Positions 478-43,133 of a stretch of 64,000 nucleotides of DNA are shown in pieces. The stretch covers positions 6,888 through 70,887 of the IMG/VR virus record IMGVR_UViG_2671180612_000005; one strand, 5' to 3'. The notes beneath the pieces are model-generated. The model saw only the letters and a list, made by a program, of their open reading frames with translations. It made no database searches and had not been told where the DNA came from. The DNA comes from a virus. Lineage: Duplodnaviria; Caudoviricetes. A program made the position numbers and the translations under genes. Positions within the stretch are counted from its first letter, which is position 1. Each line of letters begins with the position of its first letter.

Positions 478-546
478 TGGTTAACGAAGGCGCATAGTTC
501 GATCACGGCACGCAGATGCCGACACCCAGCATCGAAGGACACACCC

Positions 547-8275: not shown

Positions 8276-8347
8276 GTGCAGGCCTTTCGCCATCTGTCTC
8301 CGGCCATGCGCCGGCGCATCATGCATACGCCGTAGCGACGCAAGATC

Positions 8348-9109
8348 TCAGGGTATCGACCGTCCGGGCTCGTAGGCACCGATCTGGCGGATGAGCCGGA
8401 GGATCGCGGCGTTGTGCTCGTCGCCGAGCCTGGCGTTCCGTGGCCCCGCCTCGTTGGCCAGCGAAATCCGGCCGCCTCCGACGACGAACTCCACAGTCGC
8501 GTGCGAGACGCCGGCCGGATCGCGGAGCGAGAATATCAGGCAGTCGCGATCGTAGTTCCCGCCGCCGACGCAGTGCGCCATGCTCGCCCCTTCGGCGTCG
8601 AGGAGTTCGGGCGTGTCCAAAAGATGCCAGGTCCAGCCGCCGTCGAGGCGCAGGATGACGTGACCGGGCGTCGCGGCCCTGCCGATCGTTCTGGCGGCGG
8701 CCTTCGCGATGCGGGCGTGCCGGCGCTCGGCATGGGCGCGGATCGCCGGCCAGTCCATGCGCGGAATCTTCCCGTAGAGCCTCGGGTCGCGCTCCCGCGT
8801 GCTCAGCACCCAGTCGCGCACCATCCGTAGGTCGCGCTGGTCGAAGCGGTAGAAGAACCCGGCTTCGACGGCGCGGTGCTGCCATTCGGCGATCTCGGAT
8901 GGCAGGTCCTCGGGCGCCGGTAGGCCTCGGCGGCCGTAGATGCGGCACGGCACAAGGCGCAGGCCGCACGTGTTGCGGGCGACGGCGCGGCACATCGCCT
9001 TCGCGACGGCGCCGGCGGTCGCCGGGTCGATCCGGCCGTAGGCGGACAAAACGCGGAAGGCAGTCCGGATATCGCCCAGACGGACCTCGTGATGGGAGTG
9101 GTCTCGCAT
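8348..9109 (-). CDS. PcfJ-like domain protein
   Basis: LDAEGASMAHCVGGGNY...IFSLRDPAGVSHATVE. Confidence 0.75.
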   Translation of the reverse strand: MRDHSHHEVRLGDIRTAFRVLSAYGRIDPATAGAVAKAMCRAVARNTCGLRLVPCRIYGRRGLPAPEDLPSEIAEWQHRAVEAGFFYRFDQRDLRMVRDWVLSTRERDPRLYGKIPRMDWPAIRAHAERRHARIAKAAARTIGRAATPGHVILRLDGGWTWHLLDTPELLDAEGASMAHCVGGGNYDRDCLIFSLRDPAGVSHATVEFVVGGGRISLANEAGPRNARLGDEHNAAILRLIRQIGAYEPGRSIP

Positions 9110-12030: not shown

Positions 12031-12464
12031 CGCTGGTGATCCCGGACGCTGGCACGGACGACGCCGAAAATCTCGACGGTCTCGTCGCAGATGCAGATCG
12101 GGTACGTCAGGCGGCTGTTGCGGTGCTCCAGATACGCGACGCCCGACTTAATGCAGAGCTGCCGGCAGACGAACCCGCCCTCGACGGTCGCGATCACGAT
12201 GGAGCCGTTGCGCTGCCTGGCGTCCCGGTCTACGACGACGATGTCGTGGTCCTCGATCCCGGCCTCGACCATGCTCGATCCGGATATCCGGAAGACGAAG
12301 GCCGCCGGCCGGTCGATGCGCAGGAGCTCGATCAGCGAGAGGGCGTCGTCTTCCCAGTCCTGAGCCGGCGAGGGAAAGCCGGCACCGGCGGACGCGACGA
12401 CGCGGAGGCGGAAGCCGGGCGGTATGGCCGTGATCGGATGGGGACGGTTCGAGAGATGGAGCAT
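12027..12464 (-). CDS. umuD: UmuD-like S24 peptidase
   Basis: AGFPSPA cleavage motif, GSSM; Arg at the expected catalytic Lys position (FVCRQL); overlaps umuC. Confidence 0.88.
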   Translation of the reverse strand: MLHLSNRPHPITAIPPGFRLRVVASAGAGFPSPAQDWEDDALSLIELLRIDRPAAFVFRISGSSMVEAGIEDHDIVVVDRDARQRNGSIVIATVEGGFVCRQLCIKSGVAYLEHRNSRLTYPICICDETVEIFGVVRASVRDHQR

Positions 12465-13309: not shown

Positions 13310-14434
13310 TCACCGATCGTTATCGAAATAGTCGTCGTCGTATTCATCGTACGGCTCTCCGAAGTCGAGCGACGTGAGGATCTCGACCCTTACGACGTTG
13401 TGGAACAGGCGGTCGTACTGGACGAAGAAGCGGCCTTTCACTTCGTCGTCCCATTCATCCCGACCGTGCGCACGCCCGCCGTCCTCATCCTCGATCTGAC
13501 CGACCCAATCGACCTCCAGGCCGACAAGGGCCTGGAACCTGGCGGTCATGGCGACGATCGGTCCGTGGACTGATAAGACCTTCCAATTTTCCGTCAGCCC
13601 GATCTCCCGGAGTTCCGTCCCGTCGACCGTGGCCGCCTCCAGGCTCGTGCCACGGTAGACGAATTCCGCCGTCCGCAGCGCGACGTCCATTCGATGGAAG
13701 AGCTGGTCGATGAAGTCCTGCTCGTCCACGATCCGATCGATCAGCGCGACGACCTCGGGGTCCTTCGCCTCGGCGAGCATGGCGAGGAACGCCGGCAGGC
13801 CCTTGACGGGTACGAGCATAGGCGTCGAACCGGCATGTGCGAGCATCGCCTCGTCGAGGGTGACGATATGCACGTCGGCATTGTTCTCCCACGCCCACGT
13901 CCTGGCTGCATCGACGATGAAGGCGTCCGGAAACTCCTTGCTCTCCCGCGCCTCGAACGGCGCCTGGCGAGCCATGTATCGCTCGAGGATCCCGGGCAGC
14001 TCGATCGTATCGAGGTCGTGCTGCACGGCACGGTATTGCCACAGGAGGCGCAGGACGAACCTGGACCTAACGGAGGTCACGGCGGCGGAGACGTCGATCG
14101 AGGGCCCGATCGCGACGGCGTCCAGCGGGAAACGCTTGTTCCATGACTCAATGTGCTTGGCGTTCTTGCGCTGCTCCCGCGCCATCTCCTCCATCTGCTC
14201 CGTCAGCCACCGGGTCACCTCGAACAGGATCAGCAGATCGAAGTGGAGCACCAGGTCGAACTCCTCGACAGCGGCCTTCAGCTCGTTAAAGAGCCGGCTG
14301 TCCAAGTTCACCCGCTCCTTGATGAAGACGTTGCTGTCGATGAGGAAGTGGCGGCTGCGTGGGCCGACGGGCGCGGCGATCAGCTCGGCCATCTCAAGCT
14401 GCTCTTCGACTACGACTGCGACTGCGTCCGACAT
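13310..14434 (-). CDS. PIN-domain protein (DUF4935-like)
   Basis: LIDSNVF, PF...KEFPDAFI, IVTLD; acidic C-terminal domain. Confidence 0.8.
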   Translation of the reverse strand: MSDAVAVVVEEQLEMAELIAAPVGPRSRHFLIDSNVFIKERVNLDSRLFNELKAAVEEFDLVLHFDLLILFEVTRWLTEQMEEMAREQRKNAKHIESWNKRFPLDAVAIGPSIDVSAAVTSVRSRFVLRLLWQYRAVQHDLDTIELPGILERYMARQAPFEARESKEFPDAFIVDAARTWAWENNADVHIVTLDEAMLAHAGSTPMLVPVKGLPAFLAMLAEAKDPEVVALIDRIVDEQDFIDQLFHRMDVALRTAEFVYRGTSLEAATVDGTELREIGLTENWKVLSVHGPIVAMTARFQALVGLEVDWVGQIEDEDGGRAHGRDEWDDEVKGRFFVQYDRLFHNVVRVEILTSLDFGEPYDEYDDDYFDNDR

Positions 14435-15616: not shown

Positions 15617-18600
15617 ATGGCTAACAGTTCCCTTTTCACAATCCTCCACATCAGCGACTTCCACTACTCCTCCCGACGAATCCGGGAGCAGAAACCGATC
15701 GTTGACGCGCTCGTGGCCGACCTTCGGAGCATATGCATAGGCCACCGCAAACCAGATCTCGTAATGTTCACTGGCGACCTAGTTCAGGCTGCGGGAACGG
15801 ATCTCCACGACGTCGCCTACGATTTCCTTTTGGACCGAGTTTCCAAAGCGACAGGCTGCAGCGACGAGCGCATCTACATCGCGGCTGGCAATCACGATCT
15901 TTCTTGGGTGGGTTTGCAGAAGTTCGAGACCGAAACTCGGGAGTGGCGGGCGCTCGTTGGCAAGCAGGACGAAACCGAAAAATTCAACGAGTTGCACGAA
16001 GCCCGGGCCTTTGACGCCGCTGTCGCCGAGAAATTTGCGAATTACCTAGACCTCGAAAAGTTTCTTAGCACGGGTTTTCGAGGTAGCGCACGTAAGCTCA
16101 CCAACGCATTCGTCACGGTCGATCACATCGAAGCGCTGAACGTAGATGTCGTAACGTTCAACACGGCCGTACTATCGACCGGCGGCCACAAGTCGCATGA
16201 CAGAGACGAGCGCAATCTAGTCGTTCCGGAATATGCCGTTATGGATGCGGTCGGCGTCCTCAAGGAAGGCTCGCTGCGCATCTTCGTCACGCACCATCCG
16301 CTCGCGCATCTCAGCGAACAGTCGGCCCGCTATCTCGAAGCCGAGATTACGAAGCACGCGCAGATCCATCTGTTCGGCCACATGCACGATCCGCAACCGC
16401 GCAACATCGTCGGACTTCGCGGAGAGGTCATGACGGATCAGGCCGGCGCGATCTTCACCAGCCGCAAGGAGTACTACAACGGCTATTCCCTGATCACCCT
16501 CGACCGCAGCAACGGTCACGCGGAGATCCTCGTCCGATCGTACTTCAAGGACCGCGACGAGTTCGACGAGGGCACCGACGTCGTAAGGGAGGGACGTTGG
16601 TGGCCCTCCCAGGAGGCACGCGAACACTTCCGCAAGATCGCCGCTCCGGTAGACGAAGCCGCGTTTCGCGATCATCTGCGTGGACCGGCTCTCGAGGCGC
16701 TGCTCGGCCGCGAGAACGCGAGCCATGGCGATCTCGAGTCGCACGATCGGTTCGTTGCCCCACCGCTGAGGCGCACGTTCATCCAGGAAGAGTCGGGGGA
16801 CGACACGAAGGTCCAGGCCGAAACGCCGATCCAATTCAAGGAGGTCGTCGAAGGCGACGCGAATCTAATCCTCTACGCACGCGCCGAGTACGGGCGCACC
16901 ACGCTTCTGCGCGAATTACGCTACCGCCTGCTTAGCGATGCGCCGATGGTGAGGTTCCCGAGGGTGCCGGTCCTGATCGACTTCGCCGACATCAGCGTGA
17001 ATGCCGATAATATGCTGAGGAAAGCTAAGGCCGGGTGCGAGGAAACGCCTGATGCGAACGACCTCGAGTCGCTCCTCAAGCTTGGACACGCCTGCGTCAT
17101 GATCGACGATGTGATGTTCCACGACGGCAAGCGCATGAAGGTCGTTCGTGACTTCGTTGAACGGTATCCGAAGGCGAGATACGTAATCTCCAGTCCTCAG
17201 TATTCCGCTACGAAGATGGGGGCTTCGATTGACCCGGAGCTGCCGGTCAGGTTCGAGTTCGTGGAGGTTCTCGAACTCCGCCGCAACGACATGCGCCAGC
17301 TGCTCGCCAAGGATGATCGCTGCACCGATGTCGAGGGTTGGCTGGATCGGCTGCAGGACGAGTTCCGCGAGATCAATCTGCCGTTCACGGCGGCCAACGG
17401 CTCGATCCTAATCGAGATCCTGGCAGAGAAATATAACTTCTCACCAATCAACCGTTCCGTGTTGATGGAACAGTTCGTGGACTCGACACTCAGGAAAGCC
17501 GCGATCGATCAAAGCCGACGCGAAACGTTCGACTACACTAACAAGACAAGTCTGCTTTCGTCCATTGCGGCATGGATGGCGCGAAACGACGACTACATTC
17601 CAAGCCGCGAAGCGGTCCGGACCGAGATGAGAAGTTACATAGAGAACGTCGGCCTCATCCAACCGGTCGACGATCTCCTCGCCGAATTCCTGTCGGCACG
17701 CATCTTCGTTGAGCGGTCGGAGGCAAGAATTAGCTTCAGATACCGCGGCGTTTTGGAGTACTTTATCGCGCTCCGCATGACTACGGACCCTGAGTTCAAG
17801 GAATGGGTCGTCTCGGACGAACACTATCTAAGGTACGTCAACGAGATACAGTACTACGCCGGCAAACTGAGAAACGACGTTGCGCTGATCACTCAGATCG
17901 CGGAACGTCACAAACGAATTCTGGCCGAAACATGGACCGGCCTCGAAAAGCTGGATCTCAACCAGTTCGATTCGATCGTCTTGCCTAGGGATGACGAGGA
18001 CTCCGTTTCAGTACTTGAACGCGAAATCGCCTCGCCCCCGCTGTCCGAGGCGGAGAAGGATGCCGAGCTGGAGACGGAAATACCGACAGATGCCGAAGAC
18101 CGACAGGAGGTCTTTCGTCCGAGCATCACGGAGGATGGAGACAAGATCCTACTGTCGCTCTTCCTTTATTCGGGACTGATCAAGAACATGGAGTTGATTC
18201 CCGACGCGACGAAGCGTGAGCATCTGTCTGAGATCTGGCGTGGTTGGGCGATCCTCCTTGTAGCGTCGCTGAGGCTGGCGCCGCGGCTCGCAAAGGAACG
18301 GCGTATCAGGATCAACGGAGCCCTCTACGAAGTCCAGGCTCCGCATGGCATGAGCGACACAACTCTTCTACGCAAGATGATGCTCATGCTGCCGCACGTG
18401 CACGTGAAGCTGCTGTCCGGGGCATTGGGAACTGAAAAGCTCGAACGACAGCTGTCTGAACCATCGCCGAACGGAGAGAACGAGCCGAAGATCTACGAGT
18501 TCTTCCGAACGAGCTTGGTCGCCGACCTTCGACTTCCGGCGACACCGGTCACCGCAACGGCGCTAACGGAGAAGTTCCGAAACAACCGATACTTGTTGTT

Positions 18601-18808
18601 GTCGTTTATAGTCCACCTGAGTGAGCTGCGGCGGCTCGATCGGGTTCGGAAGGAGCATTTTGTAAAGCTCGAAGCGCCGATTGCCAAGGCGATCGCCGGC
18701 TTGCGAAGTTCGTCGCCCGAAGGTAGGAGAAAGGAGACTGACAAGGAACTCGCACGTCTTACACGCGAACGTCTCTTGGTCACGATGAAGAAGGAACGGG
18801 AAACGTAG
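15617..18808 (+). CDS. Calcineurin-like metallophosphoesterase fused to STAND/NACHT NTPase (probable anti-phage defence)
   Basis: DFH, GD, GNHD, HH, GHMH; Walker A-like ARAEYGRTT, Walker B VMIDD, winged-helix-like F.Y..VLEYFIA; lower GC. Confidence 0.85.
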   Translation: MANSSLFTILHISDFHYSSRRIREQKPIVDALVADLRSICIGHRKPDLVMFTGDLVQAAGTDLHDVAYDFLLDRVSKATGCSDERIYIAAGNHDLSWVGLQKFETETREWRALVGKQDETEKFNELHEARAFDAAVAEKFANYLDLEKFLSTGFRGSARKLTNAFVTVDHIEALNVDVVTFNTAVLSTGGHKSHDRDERNLVVPEYAVMDAVGVLKEGSLRIFVTHHPLAHLSEQSARYLEAEITKHAQIHLFGHMHDPQPRNIVGLRGEVMTDQAGAIFTSRKEYYNGYSLITLDRSNGHAEILVRSYFKDRDEFDEGTDVVREGRWWPSQEAREHFRKIAAPVDEAAFRDHLRGPALEALLGRENASHGDLESHDRFVAPPLRRTFIQEESGDDTKVQAETPIQFKEVVEGDANLILYARAEYGRTTLLRELRYRLLSDAPMVRFPRVPVLIDFADISVNADNMLRKAKAGCEETPDANDLESLLKLGHACVMIDDVMFHDGKRMKVVRDFVERYPKARYVISSPQYSATKMGASIDPELPVRFEFVEVLELRRNDMRQLLAKDDRCTDVEGWLDRLQDEFREINLPFTAANGSILIEILAEKYNFSPINRSVLMEQFVDSTLRKAAIDQSRRETFDYTNKTSLLSSIAAWMARNDDYIPSREAVRTEMRSYIENVGLIQPVDDLLAEFLSARIFVERSEARISFRYRGVLEYFIALRMTTDPEFKEWVVSDEHYLRYVNEIQYYAGKLRNDVALITQIAERHKRILAETWTGLEKLDLNQFDSIVLPRDDEDSVSVLEREIASPPLSEAEKDAELETEIPTDAEDRQEVFRPSITEDGDKILLSLFLYSGLIKNMELIPDATKREHLSEIWRGWAILLVASLRLAPRLAKERRIRINGALYEVQAPHGMSDTTLLRKMMLMLPHVHVKLLSGALGTEKLERQLSEPSPNGENEPKIYEFFRTSLVADLRLPATPVTATALTEKFRNNRYLLLSFIVHLSELRRLDRVRKEHFVKLEAPIAKAIAGLRSSSPEGRRKETDKELARLTRERLLVTMKKERET

Positions 18809-18847
18809 CTTCATCGCGGAAGGTCGGGTGTCGATCTTACTACTTTT

Positions 18848-19060
18848 TCACTCCGACTTCACTGAATAGGCGTGGATCGTGCCGCCGCACGTCGGGCACC
18901 TGACGTTCAGATGTCTGTGGTCGTGCTGGTCCCGGAAGTCGCCTTCCTGGAAGTCCCCGTCAGCGCGGACACACTCGATCGCCGTCCGGCAGTGGGAGCA
19001 GGTGCCGGCGAAGGGATTGTGCTCGGGCAGCCTACCCATTCGGGCGACCTTGATCGTCAT
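18848..19060 (-). CDS. Small zinc-ribbon protein
   Basis: CSHC...CPTC; GAGGAG RBS. Confidence 0.7.
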   Translation of the reverse strand: MTIKVARMGRLPEHNPFAGTCSHCRTAIECVRADGDFQEGDFRDQHDHRHLNVRCPTCGGTIHAYSVKSE

Positions 19061-19224
19061 GGCGCCGCCCTCCTCGCCGCGAACGCCGCCGCAAGCATCC
19101 GCTCGGCCTCGACGATCTCCACAGGATCCGCCGACATGCCGGCGACGATCCTGGCGGCGACGATCATTTTGAAGGGGAGGATGCCCCTCCGGGCCCCGCT
19201 CTCGCGCAGCTCCTCGTAGCGCTT

Positions 19225-20031
19225 CTAGTCCATGGGCAGCGTCGACGTGCCGACGGCGGCCGGATCGCCAGAGGCGTAGACGCCCGGAGCGTAGTTCGAG
19301 GTCCAGACCCGCCGGGTGACGCCCTCCTGGGCGACGTCGTAGGACGATGCCTCGCCCTCGATCGACGCCGATCCGAAGCCTTCGATGGGATACTCGACCT
19401 CCTCGACGATCCGCCGCGACGGCGTGCCCGGAATGTCGAACCCGCGCACCTTCTCGATCTCGGTTTCCGGTACGATGAACCAATCGGCGGCTAGAATGTC
19501 GGTGCTGGATGCCGACCACCCCATCAAGATCTTGTCGTCGGCGGTCTTCATCAGCAGGTACGGCAGCACGTCCGCCTTCCCGCCGTTCCGTTCGGCGAAC
19601 GCCCTAGTGTGCGGATTCCAGAACTTGTCCGCGGGCAGGTCGACCTGACGGTCACCGCTACAGATCCAAAGGCGCGGCTCGTCGCCAGCGCCCGGCAGCT
19701 TGTTGCCGTTCCAGCCCAGCCGGGAGACCCGGTCGCCGACCTGCATCATCCGCAGCGCGCCGCCGAAATCCATGGTCCTGACGCAGACGGTCCCGGAGTC
19801 GCCGAGCTCGGCCAACTCGCGATCCAGCTCTCGCCAGATGGCGGGACTGTTGGCCGAATAACCCTCGCGATGCAGACGGTCGGCGATACGACGAACGTTG
19901 ACGGATCGAACATCGGTCCCCTTCTTGTCGAACCACGGGTTCTTAGCCATCCACTCGGTCTCGAACGCACTTGGCACGACGGGCGGCGTGGTGGTGCCCA
20001 ACGTCGCCATTACGTTCTCTTCGTTGCTCAT
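19225..20031 (-). CDS. DUF2829 (Tad2-like) domain fusion protein
   Basis: MDFGGAL..G.RVSRLGWNG...PYLLMKTAD...GWSASSTDILAADW. Confidence 0.85.
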   Translation of the reverse strand: MSNEENVMATLGTTTPPVVPSAFETEWMAKNPWFDKKGTDVRSVNVRRIADRLHREGYSANSPAIWRELDRELAELGDSGTVCVRTMDFGGALRMMQVGDRVSRLGWNGNKLPGAGDEPRLWICSGDRQVDLPADKFWNPHTRAFAERNGGKADVLPYLLMKTADDKILMGWSASSTDILAADWFIVPETEIEKVRGFDIPGTPSRRIVEEVEYPIEGFGSASIEGEASSYDVAQEGVTRRVWTSNYAPGVYASGDPAAVGTSTLPMD

Positions 20032-20046
20032 CTTGCTCTCCTCTCC

Positions 20047-20979
20047 TCAACGACCCGCGATCGCCCGGGCGATCTGCGCCGGCACGCCATGCTGGATTTC
20101 GATTCTCATGACCGGGCCGTGGCCCGTCTTCCTGACGTTCCGGGCGACGTGCTCCGTGACGATCGCCATCGCTTCGACATCGTCGAGCCAGCGCGGTTGC
20201 CCGTATTCGGTGACCGCCGCGCCGACGCGCACGGTCGCGTCGGCGATCCGGGCCGCATACTTCTCCGCCGGCGGCGTGTTGGCGCGGCCCTGCGCCTGCA
20301 TGCGGCGCACGCCTGCGATCTGCACGGTGACGTGCGGTCGGCCGGCGGGATCGCGCAGCGAGACGATCGCGCCGCCGCGGCCGAGCCTGTCGTAGCTGCC
20401 CTGCCCGACGCAGTGGCCCATGGCATCGCCTTCAGCGTCTCGCTCCGCATCCGTCCGGACCCACACCCATGCCCAGCCGTCGTCGTACCGGTGGAGGACC
20501 GGGCACGAAGCCAGGTCGACCGCGGCGGCCTCGGTCTTCCGCTTCGCGAGGGCGGCATGCCAGCGGTCCTGGGCCTGCCAGAGAGCCTGATAGTTCATGC
20601 GCGGAAGCTTTGCGTAGCGGCGAGGATCGTCCTGGCGGACGGAACGGATCCAGTCCACAATCGGCAGGACGCCGTACTGCGTTGGCGTCAGGGGCCACCC
20701 TGACGAGGACGGACCATCCAACCTTTCCATCGCGTCCGCCGCGATGGCGACCATCTCGCGGAGCTCCTTCGGATAGCGGTAGCCGCGACAGGACTGGCAG
20801 CGCTCTTCGGGCCTCGCGGGAAGATCTCCTCGGACCATGGCGCGAGCGAACGTCTTCGTCACCGAGACGAGAATGGCTTCGTCCGGGCTCCCCGCTTCGG
20901 CGTAGAACTCCCGGAACGTGTAGGCCCAGATTCGACCGACATCGGCGACAATACGGGGATGGGTGGCGACATCGCTCAC
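20047..20979 (-). CDS. PcfJ-like domain protein
   Basis: RDAEGDAMGHCVGQGSY...IVSLRDPAGRPHVTVQ. Confidence 0.75.
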   Translation of the reverse strand: MSDVATHPRIVADVGRIWAYTFREFYAEAGSPDEAILVSVTKTFARAMVRGDLPARPEERCQSCRGYRYPKELREMVAIAADAMERLDGPSSSGWPLTPTQYGVLPIVDWIRSVRQDDPRRYAKLPRMNYQALWQAQDRWHAALAKRKTEAAAVDLASCPVLHRYDDGWAWVWVRTDAERDAEGDAMGHCVGQGSYDRLGRGGAIVSLRDPAGRPHVTVQIAGVRRMQAQGRANTPPAEKYAARIADATVRVGAAVTEYGQPRWLDDVEAMAIVTEHVARNVRKTGHGPVMRIEIQHGVPAQIARAIAGR

Positions 20980-20983
20980 CTCC

Positions 20984-21544
20984 TCAGCCCTCCGATCCGT
21001 CGAGGCCGATCGCGTGCTTCACGCTCTCGACGACGCGCCGATTCCCCTGCTCGTAGCCGTTCTGGAAGACGGCGCGCAGCGTTTCTGGGAATTCGAGACC
21101 ACCGACCCGGAACCACTTGCCCGGACGGGTCTCGAAGTCCTCGAGCCGCGCCGTCCTCCAGGTGCCGACGACGCCGTAGGCCCGCCGCACGATGCCGCGC
21201 TGCTCGTCCTTCTCCTCGCCGACGACCCGGACGGCCGCGTCCTCGCAGACGACGTAGCCCGACGGAACGTCCGCCGGCACGACGAGATCGTCCTGGCCGA
21301 GTCCGCCGCCCTCGGTCCAGATCATTTCGAACGCCGGCTCGCCGCGACGGGGGCGGACGAGTAGGAGCATGAATGCGATCGGTGCGGTGTGCGTCATCGG
21401 CTCCTCGATCGGCGCCGGATTCGGATCGTCGCCGGGCTCCAGGAAGGGGTCGTCGCCGCGCCCCTCGACGACGGCGGCCGCAAGGATGTCTTCGCGCTCG
21501 ATCTCAGCGGTGGTCAGCGTGGTTTGGGCGTCGGTGTCGGACAT
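20984..21544 (-). CDS. Hypothetical protein
   Basis: 186 aa, GAGG RBS. Confidence 0.6.
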   Translation of the reverse strand: MSDTDAQTTLTTAEIEREDILAAAVVEGRGDDPFLEPGDDPNPAPIEEPMTHTAPIAFMLLLVRPRRGEPAFEMIWTEGGGLGQDDLVVPADVPSGYVVCEDAAVRVVGEEKDEQRGIVRRAYGVVGTWRTARLEDFETRPGKWFRVGGLEFPETLRAVFQNGYEQGNRRVVESVKHAIGLDGSEG

Positions 21545-21601
21545 GGGTGCCTCGATGGCGCAAGGGGATCGAGGCGGCCGCCGGAGCAGCCGCCGGCGGG
21601 A

Positions 21602-22459
21602 TCAGCGGAAGGTGATGGTGGGCTCTGCTCCGAAGTTCTGACCGACCCTCCTCCGACGGGTCTCGAGGACGCGAAGGTACGTGCGCATCGCGGCCTCTTG
21701 GGAAACCAGGAGATCCCGGTCGATGTCGGCCAGACGACGGTAGTCGGCGGACTTCACGAACGCCGCCAGGTCAAAGAGGCGCTTGTCGAGCTCGAGCGCT
21801 TCGGCGTCGAGACGCTTCCAGAGGACCTCCCTCGTCTCGCCGCCGTTCTCAAGCTGCGCCTTCTCGGCATCGGTCAGGCCGTCCTTCGGTGTCGGCACCG
21901 GCGGGACGTAATCGGGCGCGTAATCCAAGATGGTGACACCGGAAGCCGCTCTCGCCGCCGCCTGGTCCTTCGTCAAGGCCGCCTGTTCGATCGCCGCGCT
22001 CTCGCCCTCGTGCAGCTGCGGCTCCGCCGGCGACGTGCCGAACTGGAGCAGATCCGCGACGGCGCGCAGGCGATCGACCGAAATGCCGGACACGGAGATC
22101 GAGACGCCGGCGCCGGAGACCTGGACGGCGGGCGGAGCCGATTGCGATGCTCCCGCCGACGACTTCCCGAACACCCGGACGACATCGTCGTCGCGGCTGA
22201 TCGTGTAGAAGCTCGGCGACGCGTGGATGCGGAACTTCACCTTGGCGCCGGACGCGTCCCCGGCGTGGACCGGGAACGTGATCTCTTCCGGATGCCGGTG
22301 GCGCTGCATGTGGAAGAGGAGGTCGTGCAGGACGACCTGCACCTGCCGATCCGGGATGCCAAGGGCGGCCGCCACTTCAGGACGGCGGGAGAGGATGTAG
22401 GCATCGGTGTTGCACGCCAGCGTGTGGCGGCCGATGACGACGGGCTTCAGGGTGGTCAT
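21602..22459 (-). CDS. Hypothetical protein with C-terminal crAss001_48-like helical domain
   Basis: RLDAEALELDKRLFDLAAFV...L...DRDLL..Q..AM..Y..VL..R. Confidence 0.65.
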   Translation of the reverse strand: MTTLKPVVIGRHTLACNTDAYILSRRPEVAAALGIPDRQVQVVLHDLLFHMQRHRHPEEITFPVHAGDASGAKVKFRIHASPSFYTISRDDDVVRVFGKSSAGASQSAPPAVQVSGAGVSISVSGISVDRLRAVADLLQFGTSPAEPQLHEGESAAIEQAALTKDQAAARAASGVTILDYAPDYVPPVPTPKDGLTDAEKAQLENGGETREVLWKRLDAEALELDKRLFDLAAFVKSADYRRLADIDRDLLVSQEAAMRTYLRVLETRRRRVGQNFGAEPTITFR

Positions 22460-22486
22460 GATCGCAGGTCTCGTTCGTTGGCGCTT

Positions 22487-22828
22487 TTACGCAGCGCGGT
22501 CGGTGGAATCGGGAATGCGGCGGATGGTCTGGTGCCGCGTCCCGTGGGCAGCGAGCGCGTTGAGGATCCCGAGCAGTTGCCGCTCGCGGTATGCGCCTTC
22601 GCCCATCATGTTGCGGTCGAGGTCCGAAAGTTCGAACGCGATGTTCGCGGCCAGGTCCTCCAGGTCGACGTGGCTCTGCCAACGGACCTCCGGCAGCGTC
22701 CCGCCGGCGGCCCCGAGATACGCCTCGACGACGTCCATCCCGCCCGGCGTCATGCCGTGCGACGTCAGGATCTGGCGATCGAGTTCCTCGACCGCCCTGC
22801 CCGTCGCCGCGATGGAGAGAGCGATCAC
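22487..22828 (-). CDS. Hypothetical protein (5' end possibly deleted)
   Basis: Frame stays coding-like upstream to about 22900 with no clear start. Confidence 0.5.
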   Translation of the reverse strand: MIALSIAATGRAVEELDRQILTSHGMTPGGMDVVEAYLGAAGGTLPEVRWQSHVDLEDLAANIAFELSDLDRNMMGEGAYRERQLLGILNALAAHGTRHQTIRRIPDSTDRAA

Positions 22829-36626: not shown

Positions 36627-38099
36627 ATGACCGAACTGAGCGGAGGGCTGTCCGCGGAGGACCTGGCGGCGGTTCTTGCCGATCCGGAGATGGACGTCTG
36701 CACGAAGGCGGCGATCCAGATGCAGTCCGACTTCCTGAAGAAGGCGCGGCCGAAGCAGATCATGCCGGGCGGCGACTGGGACGTCTGGGTCTTGAGATGC
36801 GGGCGCGGCTTCGGGAAGAACTTCTGCGGCAGCCACAACTTCGGCATCGCCGCCCTGAAGAACCCCGGGTCGCGCATGGCGGTGCTGTCGCCGACGGCCG
36901 CGACGCTCCGCCGAGACGCGTTCGAGGGCAAGGACGGTCTGGCGAAGGTGATCCCGGCATACGCCATCGCCGAACACCACAAGTCCTACAACGAGATCCA
37001 CCTCCACAACGGAACGATCCTGCAGGGCTTTCCGATGGAGAGCCCGGACCGTCTTCGCGGGCCCAGCTTCCATGCGGGATGGCTCGACGAAGTCTGCGCC
37101 GCCGGTGCCAAAGCGCAGGAAGCCTGGGACATGTACAACTTCTGTCTCCGCCTCGGCGAGAAGCCGTGGACGATGATCACGACGACGCCGAAGCCGATGC
37201 GCCTGATCCGCGACATCGAGGCCGACAAGTTCACGAAGCTGACGATCGGCACGACGCTCGAGAACCTCGCGAACCTGCCGCCGACGCAGCAGCGCCGCCT
37301 CCTGCGGTACATGAACACGCCGCTCGGCCGCCAGGAGATCTTCGCCGAGATCCTGGACGAGTCCGACCTCAAGAACCCGATCAAGAGGAAATGGTGGGCG
37401 CAATGGGACCAGCCCCGCGTTCCTCCGCCGGCGCACATCGTCGTTAGCTTCGACACCGCCTTCAAGTCGAAGAAGGAGTCGGATTCGACCGCCTGCACCG
37501 TCTGGGGCGCCCTGCGGGTGGGCGTGCGCCGAAAGGGCGTCATCCGTCCGGAATGGGTCACCCTCCTGCTCGATTCCTGGAAGAAGAAGTTGGATTTCCC
37601 GCACCTCAAGCGCGCCGCCTACCTCGAGCGCGAGAAGTGGATCGGGATGGCCGGCGAGGCATGCGAGGTCACGACGCTGATCGAGGACAAGGGCTCCGGA
37701 CAGAGCCTGATCCAGGAGCTGAACGCCGCCGGCGTGCCGTGCGTGCCGTACAATCCCGGCCACGACTCCAAGCTCATGCGCGCCCACGCCGTCAGCGATC
37801 TGTTCGCCGAGGGAGCCGTCTTCGCCCGCGTCTACGACCATCCGCAGGACGGACGGATCTTCGTGCCGACGGCCGACGAGGTGATCACGGAATGCGAGAA
37901 GTTCGGCGACGAGGGCGTGCCGTCGGACGACTACGTCGACTCGACGAGCCAGGCCCTGACGTTCCTGCGCAACGAGGGTTGGTTGGGCAAGGAGTCGGAC
38001 CGCGAGTTCCACCAGGCGATCTCGGCCGAGCCCCCCGAGGAGAAGGACGATAACGGCTGGGACGACGACGAGGACGAGACGGAGCCGCTCTACGCGTGA
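36627..38099 (+). CDS. terL: Terminase large subunit
   Basis: GRGFGK, LRGP..WLDE, TTTP, SFDTA, IEDKGSG, DDYVDS. Confidence 0.95.
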   Translation: MTELSGGLSAEDLAAVLADPEMDVCTKAAIQMQSDFLKKARPKQIMPGGDWDVWVLRCGRGFGKNFCGSHNFGIAALKNPGSRMAVLSPTAATLRRDAFEGKDGLAKVIPAYAIAEHHKSYNEIHLHNGTILQGFPMESPDRLRGPSFHAGWLDEVCAAGAKAQEAWDMYNFCLRLGEKPWTMITTTPKPMRLIRDIEADKFTKLTIGTTLENLANLPPTQQRRLLRYMNTPLGRQEIFAEILDESDLKNPIKRKWWAQWDQPRVPPPAHIVVSFDTAFKSKKESDSTACTVWGALRVGVRRKGVIRPEWVTLLLDSWKKKLDFPHLKRAAYLEREKWIGMAGEACEVTTLIEDKGSGQSLIQELNAAGVPCVPYNPGHDSKLMRAHAVSDLFAEGAVFARVYDHPQDGRIFVPTADEVITECEKFGDEGVPSDDYVDSTSQALTFLRNEGWLGKESDREFHQAISAEPPEEKDDNGWDDDEDETEPLYA

Positions 38100-38152
38100 T
38101 CGCCGTTGAGGTTCGAGTGATGAACTTGTAAAAGACCGTACGACGGGGGAGA

Positions 38153-40501
38153 ATGCACATGGGAAGCAAGGAGTTCGGCGAGTTCGCGCCGGTGGATCCG
38201 CTAGACATGTTCCGCGACATGGAGGAGGTCGAGCTCGAGGACCTCGACGCGGCGTCGTCCGACGCGGACGAGCCCGAGGACCACTTCGCGAACCTCGTTA
38301 CGACGCTCGACGTGGACGATCTGAAGAAGATCGCCTCCGAGCTCGTCGACCGCGTCGATACCGACATCGAGGAACGGGACAGGCACGACCGCTTCATGCT
38401 GAAGGGCATGGAAGCGATGGGCATCGATAGGGACGAAATCCGCACGGGTGCATTCGCCGGTTCGTCGACCGTACGACATCCCCTCCTCGCGCAGGCCTGC
38501 GTCGACTTCCAGTCCCGCATCACACGCGAGCTGCTGCCCGCCGGCGGCGCCGTCCGCGCCGTTCCGAGCGAGGGCTACGACGAGGCGTCCGGATCGCTTC
38601 GCCGCGCCGAGGTCTACGCCAACCGGCGCATCCTGTCGTCCGGCGGCTGCGGCTATTCGGAATCGCTCGAGCAGGCGTTCATCCGTCTTCCGCTGGCCGG
38701 CAGCGTCATCCGCAAGGTCCGTCAGGGTCCCGACGGGGCCGTGTCCGAGACGATCGCGACCGGAGATTTCGCTGTCCCGTATTCCGCGACGACGCTCCAG
38801 TCCTCGCCCCGGAACACGCACATCCTGCGCCTGCACAAGCACGAGGTGGACCTCAACTTCCGCAGCGGCCTGTGGAAGCGCTTCGATCTCGACGAGCGCG
38901 GCGACGAGAGTCGCCGTCCCGAGTCGCAGTCGAAGAAGCACGCCCAGCGCGTCACCGGACAGTCGAAGTCCAGCGAGGACGACGATCGCTACGTCTTCTA
39001 CGAGGTCCATTGCTGGTGGGCCGTCGAGGACGAGGAGGAGGAGCGCCCTTACGTCGTCGTGATCCATCCCGACACCGAGACCGTGTGCATGGTCCGGCGG
39101 AACTGGGATCCCGCCGACGGCGCGATGCAGCCGATCCAGCACTTCGTCCACTATCGCTACCTCCCGTGGGAGGGCTTCTGGGGCATCGGCCTCTTCCACC
39201 TCATCGGCGGCCTGTCGTCGGCCGCGACCGGCTCGCTGCGGGCCCTGATGGATTCGGCCGTCCTCCAGAACATGCCGACCGGTCTGGCCGACAAGAGCGC
39301 CGGCGTCACGAAGGGCGGCAAGCTGAAGCTCGAGCCGCTCGGCTTCACGAACGTCACGCTTCCGACCACCGGCGGCGACAGGGACATCCGCAAGCACTTC
39401 ATGCCCCTGCCCGTCGCCGGGCCGTCGGCGACGCTGTTCTCGCTCCTGCAGTTCATGGTGTCCGAGGGCAGCGAGTTCGCCTCCGTCGCGATCAAGGGCC
39501 TGGCGGACGCGTCCGAGCAGGCGCCGGTGGGAACCACGATGGCGCTCGTCGAGCAGGGCTCGATCGTGTTCGCTTCGATCCACCTGCGTCAGCATCGGAG
39601 CTTCGCGCAGGAACTCCGTCTGTTCCAGCGCGTGACCCGCGACTGGATGCCGGCGGAGGGCGACGACGGCGTCCAGAAGGAGGACTTCGACGACGTCCTG
39701 ATCCTCGTGACGGCCTCCGACCCGTCCACTTGGTCGTCGGTCCAGCGCGTGACCCAGGCCCAGGCCGTCGTCCAGATGGCCCAGCTCGCCAACTCTCTCG
39801 GCGTGAAGGTCGATCTGCGCTCGGCGTTCATCACCATGTCCAAGGCGCTCGGCGTCGAGGATCCGGAGGCCATGTTCCCCAAGGAGGAGCAGCCGCAGCC
39901 GCCCCCGCCGATGCAGCCCCAGGAGGAGTTCGCGGCCATTCTGCGCGGGCAGCCGACGCGGGCGTATCCGGGCCAGAACCACGATGCCCACAAGGCGTTC
40001 TACGAGCAGGTCCTGCAGGATCCGTCCTACGCCAAGGCGCTGGAGAAGGCCCTGCCGTCCGTCCTCGCCTGCCATGCCGACCACACGGCGCAGGGCGTCC
40101 TGGACGAGATCGCCCGCATCACGGGCCAGCAGCCGCCCGAGGTCGACCCGATGCTGTGGCAGTCCGCCATGGTCGCGGCCGAGGCGGCCGCCCGTCTCGC
40201 GCAGACCCGTCGCGCCTCCGATCCGGCCGTCGTCGCCGTGCAGGAGGACGCGAAGACGCGGATCGAGATCGAGAACCGCAAGCTGCAGCAGCGCGACACG
40301 CAGATCATCCAGACCGGCGAGCTCAAGTTCGCCGAGCTGGCGAGCCGCGAGCGCATCGCCGTGGCCGAGATCGAGGCGAAGGCGGCGAACCTCGTAACCG
40401 AGGCGTCGATGCAGCGCGAGGAGGCCGAGCGACGTTCGGCCGACGCCCGCGAGAAGGCGGCGTTCGACGCCGCGAACAAGGCACCGGAGGTCGTCCTTTG
40501 A
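38153..40501 (+). CDS. Portal protein
   Basis: HPLLAQACVDFQS, LPLAGS..RK, FWGIGL.HLIGGL, APVGTT.AL. Confidence 0.9.
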   Translation: MHMGSKEFGEFAPVDPLDMFRDMEEVELEDLDAASSDADEPEDHFANLVTTLDVDDLKKIASELVDRVDTDIEERDRHDRFMLKGMEAMGIDRDEIRTGAFAGSSTVRHPLLAQACVDFQSRITRELLPAGGAVRAVPSEGYDEASGSLRRAEVYANRRILSSGGCGYSESLEQAFIRLPLAGSVIRKVRQGPDGAVSETIATGDFAVPYSATTLQSSPRNTHILRLHKHEVDLNFRSGLWKRFDLDERGDESRRPESQSKKHAQRVTGQSKSSEDDDRYVFYEVHCWWAVEDEEEERPYVVVIHPDTETVCMVRRNWDPADGAMQPIQHFVHYRYLPWEGFWGIGLFHLIGGLSSAATGSLRALMDSAVLQNMPTGLADKSAGVTKGGKLKLEPLGFTNVTLPTTGGDRDIRKHFMPLPVAGPSATLFSLLQFMVSEGSEFASVAIKGLADASEQAPVGTTMALVEQGSIVFASIHLRQHRSFAQELRLFQRVTRDWMPAEGDDGVQKEDFDDVLILVTASDPSTWSSVQRVTQAQAVVQMAQLANSLGVKVDLRSAFITMSKALGVEDPEAMFPKEEQPQPPPPMQPQEEFAAILRGQPTRAYPGQNHDAHKAFYEQVLQDPSYAKALEKALPSVLACHADHTAQGVLDEIARITGQQPPEVDPMLWQSAMVAAEAAARLAQTRRASDPAVVAVQEDAKTRIEIENRKLQQRDTQIIQTGELKFAELASRERIAVAEIEAKAANLVTEASMQREEAERRSADAREKAAFDAANKAPEVVL

Positions 40502-40731
40502 GCGACGCACGCCGTCTCATGGAGCGTGTCCAGGAACTCCTCCTGGAACGCAAGGCCTCGATCGCCGCCGGGGTTCTCGACGGCTCCCTGCCCGACCATT
40601 CCCAGTATCTGGCGCAGTGCGCCGAGATCCGGGCGCTCGACACAGTGTGGGTCAGCGTCCTCGGCTCCTACGAGGCCATGACGGCCGAGGGAGAGATCGA
40701 AGAAGAACCCGAAGAAGGAGAAGACAGTTGA
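40498..40731 (+). CDS. Small head-module protein
   Basis: TTG start overlapping portal stop. Confidence 0.6.
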   Translation: MSDARRLMERVQELLLERKASIAAGVLDGSLPDHSQYLAQCAEIRALDTVWVSVLGSYEAMTAEGEIEEEPEEGEDS

Positions 40732-41138
40732 ACACCCAGTCCCCCGTCCTCGCCGTCGGCGGTCCCGTCTCGGCCCTGCCGAAGACCGATCCGCGTTTCC
40801 CGCCCGTCTCCGACGTGCCCATCCCGCTCGGCCATCGCCTCGTCGTCCAGCACGCCAAGGTCTCGCAGACCTACGCAGGCACGTCGATCATCAAGCACGT
40901 CGCGCAGGTCGAGGCCGAGGCTTACCAGTGCACCGAGGCGAAGGTTCTGAAGGTCGGCGACGACGCCTGGCGCAACCGCGAGACCGGGGTCGAATGGGTG
41001 GGCGGCGCCAAGCTGCGCCCCGGGGACGTCGTGCTCATTCCGATGACGAAAGGGCTCCGCTTCACGCGCGACGACTGCACCCTCCAGATGATCGAGGACA
41101 TCGTGCCGCTCGCCCTACTGGAGCGGCCGTCGGCCTGA
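40728..41138 (+). CDS. GroES-like co-chaperonin
   Basis: PLGHRLVV...II...AKVLKVGDDA...PGDVV...IED; start uncertain. Confidence 0.8.
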   Translation: MNTQSPVLAVGGPVSALPKTDPRFPPVSDVPIPLGHRLVVQHAKVSQTYAGTSIIKHVAQVEAEAYQCTEAKVLKVGDDAWRNRETGVEWVGGAKLRPGDVVLIPMTKGLRFTRDDCTLQMIEDIVPLALLERPSA

Positions 41139-41157
41139 TCGACTGCGTCGGACGAAG

Positions 41158-41183
41158 AAAAGCGGCCTCCGGGCCGCTTTTTT
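41158..41183 (+). terminator. Intrinsic terminator (possibly bidirectional)
   Basis: AAAAGCGGCC-TCCG-GGCCGCTTTTTT. Confidence 0.85.
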
Positions 41184-41195
41184 CGTTCGGGGGTA

Positions 41196-41225
41196 TTCGA
41201 GTTGGACGTGGCGACATCGTAAATA
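41196..41225 (+). promoter_or_regulatory. Late promoter motif
   Basis: TTCGAG-N18-TAAATA. Confidence 0.55.
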
Positions 41226-41266
41226 GTCAGGAGACGGATGATCGGATGATACCGGGGAGCTTACGC

Positions 41267-41503
41267 ATGAGCGACGGAACCGAGACGAAGGCGCCGAGGA
41301 AGGCCAAGGCGCCGGCGAAACCGAAGGACGAGGCCGCGGCGGTCGAGGCCGAGGCCGTCGAGGACGACTACGTCGCGCCGCGTTCCCGGGCCCGCATCGC
41401 TCGCGCCGACGCGTCGGTGCAGGCCATCCGCAAGAAGATGTCGATCTCCGACCAGGGCGGCGAGGGCCTCGTCCTGACGCCAGAGCTGAAGCTCACGATG
41501 TGA
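41267..41503 (+). CDS. Small hypothetical protein
   Basis: GGGGAG RBS; MSDGTETKAPRK... Confidence 0.65.
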   Translation: MSDGTETKAPRKAKAPAKPKDEAAAVEAEAVEDDYVAPRSRARIARADASVQAIRKKMSISDQGGEGLVLTPELKLTM

Positions 41504-41563
41504 TCCGGACCGCGGGCCGCACGACCGGATAACGGGGCCCGCGATTTTTTTCGACGACGCCGC

Positions 41564-41593
41564 TTCGAGATGGACGGGGCGGCGTCGTACACT
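41564..41593 (+). promoter_or_regulatory. Late promoter motif
   Basis: TTCGAG-N18-TACACT; 26-bp identity with 43208-43233. Confidence 0.7.
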
Positions 41594-41666
41594 TCCGTCA
41601 TCGAAGGGATCGGGGGATCCCGCAGGCGCAGCGAGCGCCGGACAGTTCGAGCCGGGGGATCGATCC

Positions 41667-42182
41667 ATGCCGCAGTCCAAGGGCCTCAGGGCCGTCCGCC
41701 ACACGTCGGGCTACATCCGCACGAGCGAGGTGAAGGGCGGCATCGCGTCCGGCTACAACACCGACATCTTCCTCGGCGACCCGCTGAAGATCGCCGCCGA
41801 CGGCACGTACGTCCGCTCGGACGGCGCCGTCGTGGACGGCATCTTCATGGGCGTCCACCTCGTCGACTCGCGCAACGAGTACCGCGTCGAGAAGAGCTGG
41901 GTCGCCGGCACCGTCACGACCGACGTGAAGCTCCTCGTCGCGACCGAGACCTCGGGTCTCGAATGCGAGATCTCCACCGACGCCGCCGCGCCTTCCAACA
42001 TCGTGGGCAAGGCGTGCAATCTCACGATGACCGCCGGATCGCACCTCAACGGTTCGTCCGCCGTCGTCCTCAACGTCGCCTCGGCAGCTACCCCCGGCAC
42101 CGCCGTCCGCGTCAAGGGATTCTCGAAGAAGGTCGGCAACGTGCCGGGCGACGTCGCGATCCTCGTCGTCGAAATCCTGTAA
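41667..42182 (+). CDS. Capsid-associated (decoration-like) protein
   Basis: GLRAVR..IASGYNTDIFLGD; directly upstream of MCP. Confidence 0.7.
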   Translation: MPQSKGLRAVRHTSGYIRTSEVKGGIASGYNTDIFLGDPLKIAADGTYVRSDGAVVDGIFMGVHLVDSRNEYRVEKSWVAGTVTTDVKLLVATETSGLECEISTDAAAPSNIVGKACNLTMTAGSHLNGSSAVVLNVASAATPGTAVRVKGFSKKVGNVPGDVAILVVEIL

Positions 42183-42206
42183 TCCGGTCGAGGGGGAAAC
42201 CGACCC

Positions 42207-43133
42207 ATGTCCAACATCATCACGACCGCCAACTTCCGGCGCAGGGTCCTGCCGATCCTCGACCGCTCGTTCGACGACCACACGGCCAAGGGGCCTGAAG
42301 AGTGGAAGAGCTGGTACGACGTCGAGGACGGCGCCGCGGCCGCCTTCGAGGAGGAGTCCGGCCTGACCGGCTTCGGTCTTCCGACCGAGCTCGGCGAAGG
42401 CGAAGCGATCACCTACGACATCGCCAAGGACGGATTCGTCACGCGCTTCCTCTGGTCCGAGTTCGGCTCCGGCTTCAAGATCACCAAGCGGATGATCGAG
42501 GACGGCCAGGGCGAGAGCCTCACGACCAAGCTATCGAAGATGCTCGGCGTCTCGTTCCGCGAGGCCCGCGAGCTCATCCACGCCTACCTGCTCAACTCCG
42601 CCTTCACCCGCGTCCGCCCGGACTTCGACAAGAAGCCGATCATCGCGACGGACCACCCGATGGCGGGCTTCGGCATGGGCGGGCAGGTCTGGTCGAACCG
42701 GCTTCCCGACGCGCAGTTCTCCGAGGCGGCGCTCGAGGACGCGGATATCTTCATCTCGAAGGCGACCGACCAGCGCGGCCTGAAGATCTCGCTGAAGGCC
42801 AAGGACATCGTGATCCCGTCGGAGCTCAAGTACGACGCGGTCCGGATCCTGCGATCCAACGGCCAGGTCAACACGCCGAACAACACGGCGAACGCGCTCA
42901 AGATCGAGGGCACGTACGGCACGGACGCGAAGGTCCTACGGTACCTGACCTCCTCGACCGCCTGGTTCATCATGACCGATGCGGACCGTGGTTTCATCCA
43001 CAAGACCCGCAACGCCCTCGAGCGCGGCATGCACGGCGACTTCGAGACCGGCAACACGGCCTATAAGGCGACCGAGCGCTACGGCGTGAACATCGGCGAC
43101 GTCCACAAGGTCTACGGCTCCGTCGGAGCCTGA
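42207..43133 (+). CDS. Major capsid protein
   Basis: AFEE..LTGFG..EG..I.YD, GF.IT..IED, YLT...AWF, DFETGN..YKATERY. Confidence 0.9.
   Translation: MSNIITTANFRRRVLPILDRSFDDHTAKGPEEWKSWYDVEDGAAAAFEEESGLTGFGLPTELGEGEAITYDIAKDGFVTRFLWSEFGSGFKITKRMIEDGQGESLTTKLSKMLGVSFREARELIHAYLLNSAFTRVRPDFDKKPIIATDHPMAGFGMGGQVWSNRLPDAQFSEAALEDADIFISKATDQRGLKISLKAKDIVIPSELKYDAVRILRSNGQVNTPNNTANALKIEGTYGTDAKVLRYLTSSTAWFIMTDADRGFIHKTRNALERGMHGDFETGNTAYKATERYGVNIGDVHKVYGSVGA

Follow-up and report, generated by a model that had tools for sequence, protein, structure and literature searches.

Tad2 proteins of phages, among them SPO1 gp34.65, HgmTad2 (AcrIIA7), SptTad2 and ModTad2, are regarded as free, soluble and short sponges of immune signals. 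The fusions known to date join one sponge to another, as in Acb4-Tad2 of Pasteurella phage Pm86 and in Tad2-Sequestin, both described in the available part of one report (10.1101/2025.07.12.664507). Here we describe a gene located at 19225..20031 on the minus strand of a 64,000-nucleotide stretch of phage DNA (the whole stretch analysed, hereafter the window), which belongs to the 70,887-base provirus record IMGVR_UViG_2671180612_000005 (Caudoviricetes). The gene encodes a protein of 268 amino acids (aa) in which a Tad2-like domain is preceded by a small helical domain that almost certainly came from a protein of the phage head module, designated protein X below.

The fusion protein resembles the four Tad2 proteins named above in profile, in fold and in the equivalents of the ligand-contacting residues, all within its residues 87-187. 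It differs from the solved short forms of 89-104 aa by its length of 268 aa, with an N-terminal three-helix domain and an 81-residue disordered tail, by a 9-residue insertion after the GWNG motif, and by the absence of the residues that HgmTad2 uses for cyclic dinucleotides. With the two-sponge fusions it shares the combination of Tad2 and another small domain in a single polypeptide, and Pasteurella phage Pm86 itself was among the tblastn matches of its Tad2 part; the partner domain in our case is, however, neither PF13876 nor PF21825, and comes from a head-module protein. In the main text of the report on two-sponge fusions, as far as available, the word 'capsid' does not occur. The other described relative is phrog_28737 (phages HTVC023P/HTVC027P, CRP-901/902 and Pag-Yong1, and Caulobacter phages RW/RLK/KcrB/GB2A), which shares with the fusion a domain of about 60 aa with the signature W-x3-N-x-W-[FY]. 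Genes of phrog_28737 are located after the gene for GroES and before those for two small proteins, 'a' and 'b', and the capsid protein, whereas the fusion gene lies outside the head module and on the minus strand. Multi-domain Tad2 proteins were thus known already, and what is new is the head-module partner, which has been seen once. The first-pass annotation of this sequence had taken the architecture to be undescribed; in agreement, no description was found in the available parts of the literature searched, supplementary homologue tables aside.

Two domains of the fusion protein

The open reading frame (ORF) at 19225-20031 starts with ATG and runs uninterrupted for 268 codons to its stop codon. 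The G+C fraction at third codon positions (GC3) was 0.85, typical of coding sequence in this window, of which the overall G+C content is 68%. A Shine-Dalgarno-like run read from the sequence, GGAGAGGAGAG, is located at 20036..20046 (minus strand), 5 nucleotides (nt) upstream of the ATG, and directly follows the stop codon of a PcfJ-like gene. Along the gene, with all coordinates on the minus strand, residues 1-19 (19975..20031) form a leader predicted to be disordered, followed by the three-helix domain at residues 20-76 (19804..19974; helices 22-30, 41-55 and 63-75), a ten-residue linker at residues 77-86 (19774..19803), the Tad2-like domain, formerly DUF2829, at residues 87-187 (19471..19773), and an acidic, Gly/Ser-rich tail at residues 188-268 (19228..19470), which is predicted to be disordered and of which the third codon positions are still G+C-rich. 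The linker was delimited from the sequence and from the alignments to solved Tad2 chains, which begin at residues 85-87. An AlphaFold2 model, built on an alignment of 11 Tad2 relatives, gave a predicted local distance difference test score (pLDDT) of 32-33 for the leader, about 50-80 for the three N-terminal helices, 80-96 for the alpha/beta domain at 87-187, and 25-37 for the disordered tail (residues 191-268). Pfam and PHROG scans of residues 1-86 and 188-268 assigned no family, the single UBA match at E<=1 being at the level of chance. Within the tail, a short E-x-x-Y-P-x-E-G motif was aligned by MAFFT with the C-terminal ends of two of the nearest Tad2 relatives (P0004 and P0005). Among the sequencing runs listed as containing parts of the window none is of RNA. 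One run of uncertain kind contains a tenth of the sampled words and gave short contigs, one of which was identical over 19663-19824, spanning the junction of both domains; this run may represent the window's own source or a near strain, and is neither independent support nor evidence of expression.

The origin of the N-terminal domain was traced by sequence comparison. When residues 1-86 were compared with 50,697 phage records by tblastn, 11 weak matches were obtained (E 0.04-4), 10 of which cover residues 17-76; the eleventh, a Gordonia minor tail protein (E 3), is probably due to chance. Three of the matches were inspected (Planktothrix phage Pag-Yong1, Caulobacter phage RLK and Roseobacter phage CRP-901), and all were found within an ORF of about 300 aa that directly follows GroES and precedes two small ORFs and then the capsid gene. 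These post-GroES proteins, encoded in the head modules of podoviruses of the HTVC023P, CRP-901 and Caulobacter-RLK types, constitute phrog_28737, for which PHROGs assigns no function, and are the proteins named X here. By hhalign, an alignment of 8 X proteins matched the fusion ORF with a probability of 93.9% and E 1.5e-7 over 55 columns. We then used a hidden Markov model (HMM) of X, made from 55 full-length X proteins of viral contigs with the window sequence left out, against all six-frame stretches of the window, and the sole match was the fusion ORF (E 5.2e-18, 61.5 bits). In an alignment of 47 sequences the four positions that are invariant in the domain are unchanged in the fusion (W27, N31, W33 and G57), as is the nearly invariant R72, at an overall identity of about 30-46%. 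The three helices predicted for the fusion correspond to those of the domain in the X model, the residue numbers differing throughout by 162. The likeness between the N-terminal segment and the GroES-adjacent protein, to which the first-pass annotation had pointed, is far beyond chance and is also borne out by the synteny of the matches. Judged by sequence and predicted helices, residues 20-76 almost certainly form a three-helix domain homologous to, and captured from, protein X.

Only this domain was captured. The fusion matches the X HMM at positions 178-237 of 314 only, and neither the acidic N-terminus, nor the helical hairpin, nor the C-terminal helix-turn-helix of X is present in it, as judged from HMM coverage and comparison of the models. 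The relationship escaped simpler searches: hmmscan against PHROGs, phrog_28737 included, gave no match for residues 1-86, and a word search of 5.8 billion proteins with residues 1-86 as query, covering proteins of 147-469 aa, retrieved only the protein itself. Comparison by hhalign of the N-domain family with the window's own PF21825 protein gave a probability of 0.5%.

The identity of the second domain is clear, as the first-pass annotation had stated for residues of about 87-186. PF11195 (Tad2-like) matched residues 87-187 over its whole profile (1-73) with E 9.5e-14 and 52.1 bits against a cut-off of 25, and phrog_872 and phrog_1048 matched the same part. Sequence search of the PDB returned AcrIIA7/HgmTad2, SptTad2, ModTad2, another Tad2 and SPO1 Tad2 (E 6e-10 to 7e-6). 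When the model of the fusion was compared with solved structures by Foldseek, 24 matches were obtained at E<=1e-3, and the best 15 of the 24 (E<=1.2e-5) were all Tad2; for SptTad2, HgmTad2, ModTad2 and SPO1 Tad2 the values were E 3.6e-8 to 1.2e-5, with template-modelling (TM) scores by target of 0.66-0.88. According to the available text of the paper defining Tad2, SPO1 Tad2 contacts 1''-3' glycocyclic ADP-ribose (gcADPR) through W25, N26, W73, T78 and D79. The equivalents in the fusion, W107, N108, W172, T177 and D178, are all kept; the last three were mapped via the phmmer alignment to the SPO1 chain, and W107 and N108 via the GWNG motif common to four other solved chains. For HgmTad2, mutation of R31, S47, F70 and N85 lowered the binding of cyclic dinucleotides, as given in the available part of the report (PMC10680739). 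None of these four is kept in the fusion, in which they map to G116, D131, V155 and M170, the alignment within the insertion being uncertain. As the SPO1 contacts are kept and the HgmTad2 residues are not, a sponge of the gcADPR type is a reasonable reading, and a sponge of the HgmTad2 type against CBASS (cyclic-oligonucleotide-based antiphage signalling) is not predicted. Residues 87-187 most likely form the usual homotetramer and sequester signals of the gcADPR type made by the TIR proteins of Thoeris.

The combination of both domains appears to be rare. Tad2 fused to the X domain was found in none of the other 149 top representatives of the domain, in none of the 61 viral loci with the domain and in none of the 19 earlier viral loci, for which the ORFs were inspected; this uniqueness holds among the best 150 of 3016 domain matches and the loci examined, about 2870 matches lying beyond those listed. 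Likewise, none of the 11 nearest Tad2 relatives carries an N-domain of the X type. Word search with the whole protein against 5.8 billion proteins (147-469 aa) gave matches of the Tad2 domain only, covering 37-40% of the query. Structural search of the ESM Atlas gave only Tad2 clusters, some with Sequestin or Acb4 domains and none with an X-type domain, and the search by features gave no usable match. Among the genome loci described below there was one stand-alone Tad2 of 100 aa and no fusion. This stand-alone gene (319-618, plus strand, of locus L142) lies about 9 kb from the capsid gene on a contig binned in a Nitrospira metagenome-assembled genome (MAG), indicating that Tad2 is present elsewhere in this phage lineage without fusion.

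As to the origin of the fusion, residue 87 is a Met that is located exactly where stand-alone Tad2 proteins start and ten residues past the last N-domain helix. Retention of Met87 at this point suggests an origin of the fusion by read-through from one gene into another that formerly lay beside it. Internal initiation at Met87 is possible.

Protein X and the head module

Search of 1.84 billion protein representatives with the X-domain profile gave 3016 proteins at E<=1e-3 and 743 at E<=1e-10, the representatives being taken at 50% identity. The best 150 of the 3016, that is, 149 besides the fusion, were inspected. These are mostly 290-350 aa long and carry the domain at about residues 180-280, with a median of about 60 residues after the domain. 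The context of X was examined in 80 viral-contig loci, which were chosen for carrying X and for this reason show its context and not its frequency. GroES was found within 400 nt upstream of X in 73 of the 76 loci with room for it, and two of the three misses are overlaps due to over-long start calls; protein 'a' (about 150-170 aa) was found within 400 nt downstream in 66 of 71 loci, and the capsid gene within 2.6 kb downstream in all 54 of 54. The frequency of X was taken from 80 further genome loci chosen via the capsid protein. X was present in 69 of these 80, and 10 of the remaining 11 are without upstream DNA. The last one, a prophage of the same head lineage in a Paracoccaceae MAG (locus L130), carries in the X slot an acidic, helical ORF of 279 aa (8097-8936, plus strand); this ORF was missed by the X HMM and may be a scaffold that has diverged and differs in its central region.

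An AlphaFold2 model of X, based on a 46-sequence alignment, reached a mean pLDDT of 80.9, and 95-97 for the three-helix domain. It consists of a disordered acidic N-terminus, a helical hairpin (54-136 and 139-174), the domain, a disordered linker and a C-terminal helix-turn-helix (275-283 and 290-308). As in scaffolding proteins, the gene is located between those for the portal and the capsid protein (synteny), and the predicted protein is elongated and helical with a C-terminal helix-turn-helix (model). Structure search of BFVD with X gave family members followed by weak matches (E 4e-3 to 0.15, TM 0.13-0.29), and 10 of the 14 named proteins in the top 50 are called scaffolding. Foldseek of the X model against the PDB gave nothing at E<=1e-3, the wide VIA structure search gave generic helical hairpins only (Z<=9.9), and sequence searches of the PDB with profiles of X and of its domain yielded no meaningful match and no solved relative. 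In GenBank, proteins of this family are named hypothetical or 'kinesin-like'. In the available parts of the genome papers on phages of the HTVC023P and CRP-901 types, X is not named, and no proteomics on it was found there. Position, predicted shape and the weak BFVD matches together make it rather likely that X is a scaffolding protein. The first-pass annotation had called the protein that the N-terminal segment resembles a putative scaffold, and its position and model shape are in keeping with this.

Sequence and model together thus outline a large protein family of the core head module that has had no annotation; it comprises the above 3016 representatives, taken at 50% identity, and its conserved domain gains a first testable handle. 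According to the available part of one paper, HTVC023P-type phages are the most abundant known group of marine phages.

The window has a head module of its own at 36627..43133 (plus strand), which is orthologous to those of X-bearing phages as judged by PHROGs and by BLASTP to proteins of Caulobacter phage RLK, Pag-Yong1 and CRP-901 (28-37% identity). It includes, all on the plus strand, the genes for the terminase large subunit TerL (36627-38099; PHROGs) and the portal (38153-40501; PHROGs, 32% identity to the orthologue of X-bearing phages), a small ORF (40519-40731), a GroES-like ORF ending at 41138 (37%), protein 'b' of 171 aa (41667-42182; 37%) and the major capsid protein (42207-43133; 31-34%). 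A search via the capsid protein revealed no close relatives of the provirus among the viral or genome contigs, the best match with an alignment being 39% identical. In related phages X and 'a' are located between GroES and 'b'. In the window, the corresponding slot of about 530 nt (41139..41666, plus strand; from the GC3 profile and coordinates) holds one ORF only, at 41267-41503, which codes for 78 aa (85 aa from 41246), has a GC3 of about 0.93 and is an orphan in the search of 5.8 billion proteins. Its middle part resembled the C-terminal tail of X by eye, and a shortened X was considered for it; hhalign gave a probability of 0.2%, and this candidate was dropped.

Neither X nor 'a' was found by our own HMMs in the window or in the other 6.9 kb of the provirus record. 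Search of the whole record with the phrog_28737 family had given no candidates; this method also missed the N-domain of the fusion, and for this reason our own HMMs were used. The X domain is accordingly represented in this provirus by a single copy, that joined to Tad2. The earlier statement that no such protein is evident in the head operon is thereby confirmed, the fusion ORF being the only match of the X HMM. The impression that the fusion gene itself belongs to the head operon would be mistaken: it is on the opposite strand, 16.6 kb from the terminase gene, and is neither in nor beside that operon.

Possible roles of the N-terminal domain

Phages are known to load counter-defence proteins into heads through scaffold-binding signals, and capsid-targeted cargo is exemplified by the T4 internal proteins with a capsid targeting sequence, the Dar proteins of P1, and encapsulation by scaffold fusion in P22. 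The concept is alike, in that a piece binding scaffold or core carries counter-defence cargo, and packaging of the fusion described here is hypothetical. The details differ: T4-type systems use a short N-terminal targeting peptide, or a coat-binding C-terminus is used, whereas the fusion has a folded central domain; its cargo would be a tetrameric sponge of small molecules, the use of which in a few injected copies is doubtful.

We tentatively explain the gene as coding for a chimeric phage counter-defence protein of four segments that is linked to head assembly; this is the best overall explanation we have, and we hold it with less than even confidence. In the fusion, the N-terminal domain would do what it does in X, namely bind a protein partner of the head-assembly machinery, for which the capsid protein, the portal, protein 'b', GroES/GroEL or another copy of the N-domain are candidates. 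The sponge tetramer would thereby be tethered to assembling heads, and would act where capsid-sensing TIR cyclases fire or, as a hypothesis only, become enclosed in proheads. Targeting to procapsids, for packaging or for placement where capsid-triggered signals arise, had been put forward as a possibility in the first-pass annotation. Tethering to any head-assembly partner at all is possible, with confidence again somewhat short of even, while actual packaging of the sponge in heads is unlikely. A tether is attractive because the cyclases of some Thoeris systems are activated by major capsid proteins, according to the available part of one report (PMC12578639), and counter-defence localised to the capsid would fit such capsid-triggered cyclases; the loading of counter-defence proteins into heads by other phages offers a precedent. 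It is doubtful that the scaffold-derived domain is a true head-targeting device that docks Tad2 tetramers on the procapsids of a phage lacking the full scaffold. In a bolder variant, the conserved X domain might itself bind ligands, and the abundant scaffold of a marine phage lineage dominant worldwide would then be an immune sponge of the late stage. A sponge joined to a head-assembly piece would point to counter-defence that is localised at the capsid or travels with it; if head targeting is true, this would be the first signal sponge that is spatially targeted or delivered by the virion, in the latter case arriving in the next cell before genes are expressed. Only one such fusion has been seen, and the roles of its domains are inferred from sequence and model.

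Several observations weigh against the proposal. The borrowed piece is the central domain of X, not the C-terminal helix-turn-helix, which is the coat-binding element in scaffolds of the phage P22 type. Five of the 149 other representatives (P0055, P0115, P0121, P0017 and P0022) are small, with 145-211 aa, and carry the X domain twice in tandem, and three of the five (P0055, P0115 and P0121) have N-terminal signal peptides and conserved cysteines, indicating that the X domain is not strictly a module of capsid proteins. The fusion gene lies in a leftward operon of early or middle type, not with the late genes. The provirus, which is without X and 'a' and of which CheckV estimated the completeness at 88%, may be defective. 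Since the architecture is a singleton, a non-functional or transient chimera stays conceivable. Within the Tad2 domain, the 9-residue insertion stands right after the GWNG motif of the pocket loop and is absent in the 11 nearest relatives, and the fusion has S173 and S176 where these relatives have L and Q; the loss of all four HgmTad2 contacts was described above. Finally, the published fusion partners of Tad2, Acb4 and Sequestin, are other sponges (10.1101/2025.07.12.664507, available part), which favours a ligand-binding reading of the N-terminal domain.

Other explanations were then weighed against a tether to heads. The N-domain could be an architectural add-on, which self-associates in X and, when joined to Tad2, stabilises or cross-links the tetramers or tunes solubility without any link to capsids. 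Scaffolds work as oligomers, and the tandem copies in small proteins would suit a unit of packing or association. The nearest Tad2 relatives carry many different N-terminal extensions of 50-190 aa that are unrelated, and one solved AcrIIA7 chain, of 158 aa, also has an extension of about 45 aa. As X has been lost from this phage, hetero-association with X is ruled out as a role here. On the other hand, although overall identity is only about 30-46%, the fusion has kept the four invariant residues, including two Trp of exposed type in and after helix 1, which suggests a specific conserved contact rather than generic helices, and Tad2 forms its tetramer unaided, as far as the available text on the family goes; we regard an architectural add-on as rather unlikely. 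The N-domain might instead be a second sponge of small molecules, so that the protein would be a two-sponge fusion like Acb4-Tad2 or Tad2-Sequestin. Its size of about 60 aa, its helical nature and its conserved W, N, W and R would suit such a role, the junction at Met87 points to an earlier stand-alone helical protein of about 83 aa beside Tad2, and the operon already includes a gene with a Sequestin domain. Families found fused to Tad2 have proved to be sponges, and sponges are short, helical or small, and homo-oligomeric (10.1101/2025.07.12.664507, available part). Yet the N-domain has no sequence likeness to PF21825 or PF13876, it is not fused to Tad2 in 149 of the best 150 representatives nor in any of the 80 viral-contig loci, and in complete proteins it is part of a head-module protein of about 300 aa, five representatives being the small tandem ones. 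A second sponge is improbable.

Two further explanations start from the state of the prophage. By accident of decay or rearrangement, a fragment of X may have come to stand in frame before Tad2, in which case the N-domain would be without function and Tad2 might be made from Met87. Of the head modules compared, that of the window alone has no scaffold-like gene behind GroES, the comparison covering the 80 viral loci selected for carrying X and the 70 genome loci with enough upstream DNA; the orphan 78-aa ORF in the slot, the singleton nature of the fusion and the CheckV estimate of 88% point in the same direction. Against this, coding statistics are normal along the whole ORF, the domain is whole, starts and stops at the domain limits of the family and keeps every invariant residue, and no other fragment of X was found in the 70.9-kb record. 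Moreover, the fusion gene is on the other strand and 21 kb from the slot, so that a single simple deletion is insufficient as the cause. Such an accident has in our judgement a low probability. Lower still is that of a decoy against competing phages, in which the X-derived domain, made from the prophage, would bind an assembly partner of incoming X-dependent podoviruses, poison the assembly of their heads and thus bring about superinfection exclusion. A prophage without X could carry such a fragment without harm to its own assembly, and the gene adjoins a candidate defence gene, PDC-S60 (E 6.5e-91). A decoy gives, however, no reason for the fusion to Tad2; the gene is part of a long leftward operon of lytic type, not of a separate moron cassette, and a scan of 18600-22600 revealed no promoter-like site.

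Surroundings of the fusion gene

The fusion gene is the third-from-last ORF of a long leftward operon, which extends from about 31.5 kb to 18.8 kb and includes a RecA-like gene. Its surroundings are an accessory corner of the prophage for counter-defence and defence, not the head operon. Upstream of the fusion, in this order, are the PcfJ-like gene, an ORF of 186 aa of no known function, and the gene for a protein of 285 aa (21602..22459, minus strand), which carries at its C-terminus (residues 215-268) a PF21825 (crAss001_48 / Sequestin) domain (Pfam E 4.2e-11). The Sequestin domain sequesters 3' cyclic ADP-ribose and is a frequent fusion partner of Tad2, according to the available part of the report (10.1101/2025.07.12.664507). 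In the 285-aa protein this domain follows an N-terminal part of about 210 aa; besides the fusion, the operon thus has another domain of the sponge type that carries a long extension. The PcfJ-like gene at 20047-20979 (minus strand), the immediate upstream neighbour of the fusion, is one of two in the window, the other being at 7415-8326 (minus strand); both match PF14284 (E 2e-5 and 9e-5, respectively) just under the Pfam cut-off.

Downstream of the fusion are two small ORFs and then a convergent defence gene on the plus strand. The last ORF of the operon (18848-19060, minus strand) codes for 70 aa with two CxxC pairs forming a zinc ribbon; its weak PADLOC match to type IV Cas8/Csf1 (E 5e-4) probably reflects the zinc ribbon only. 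It is preceded by an ORF of about 36 aa with an ATGA overlap. The convergent gene at 15617-18808 (plus strand) codes for a protein of 1063 aa with calcineurin-like phosphoesterase and STAND NTPase parts, which is the PADLOC candidate PDC-S60 noted above and matches the NCBIfam DS8 anti-phage protein below the cut-off. Local G+C of this gene is lower (0.58), and a terminator-like hairpin is located at 18820-18838. The scan of 18600-22600 gave terminator-like sites on the plus strand only. Left of the defence gene, at 10768-12464 and 13310-14434 (both minus strand), are a pair of UmuD-like (Peptidase_S24) and UmuC-like (IMS family) genes and a gene for a PIN_12 protein, which may be cargo or the host flank of the provirus record.

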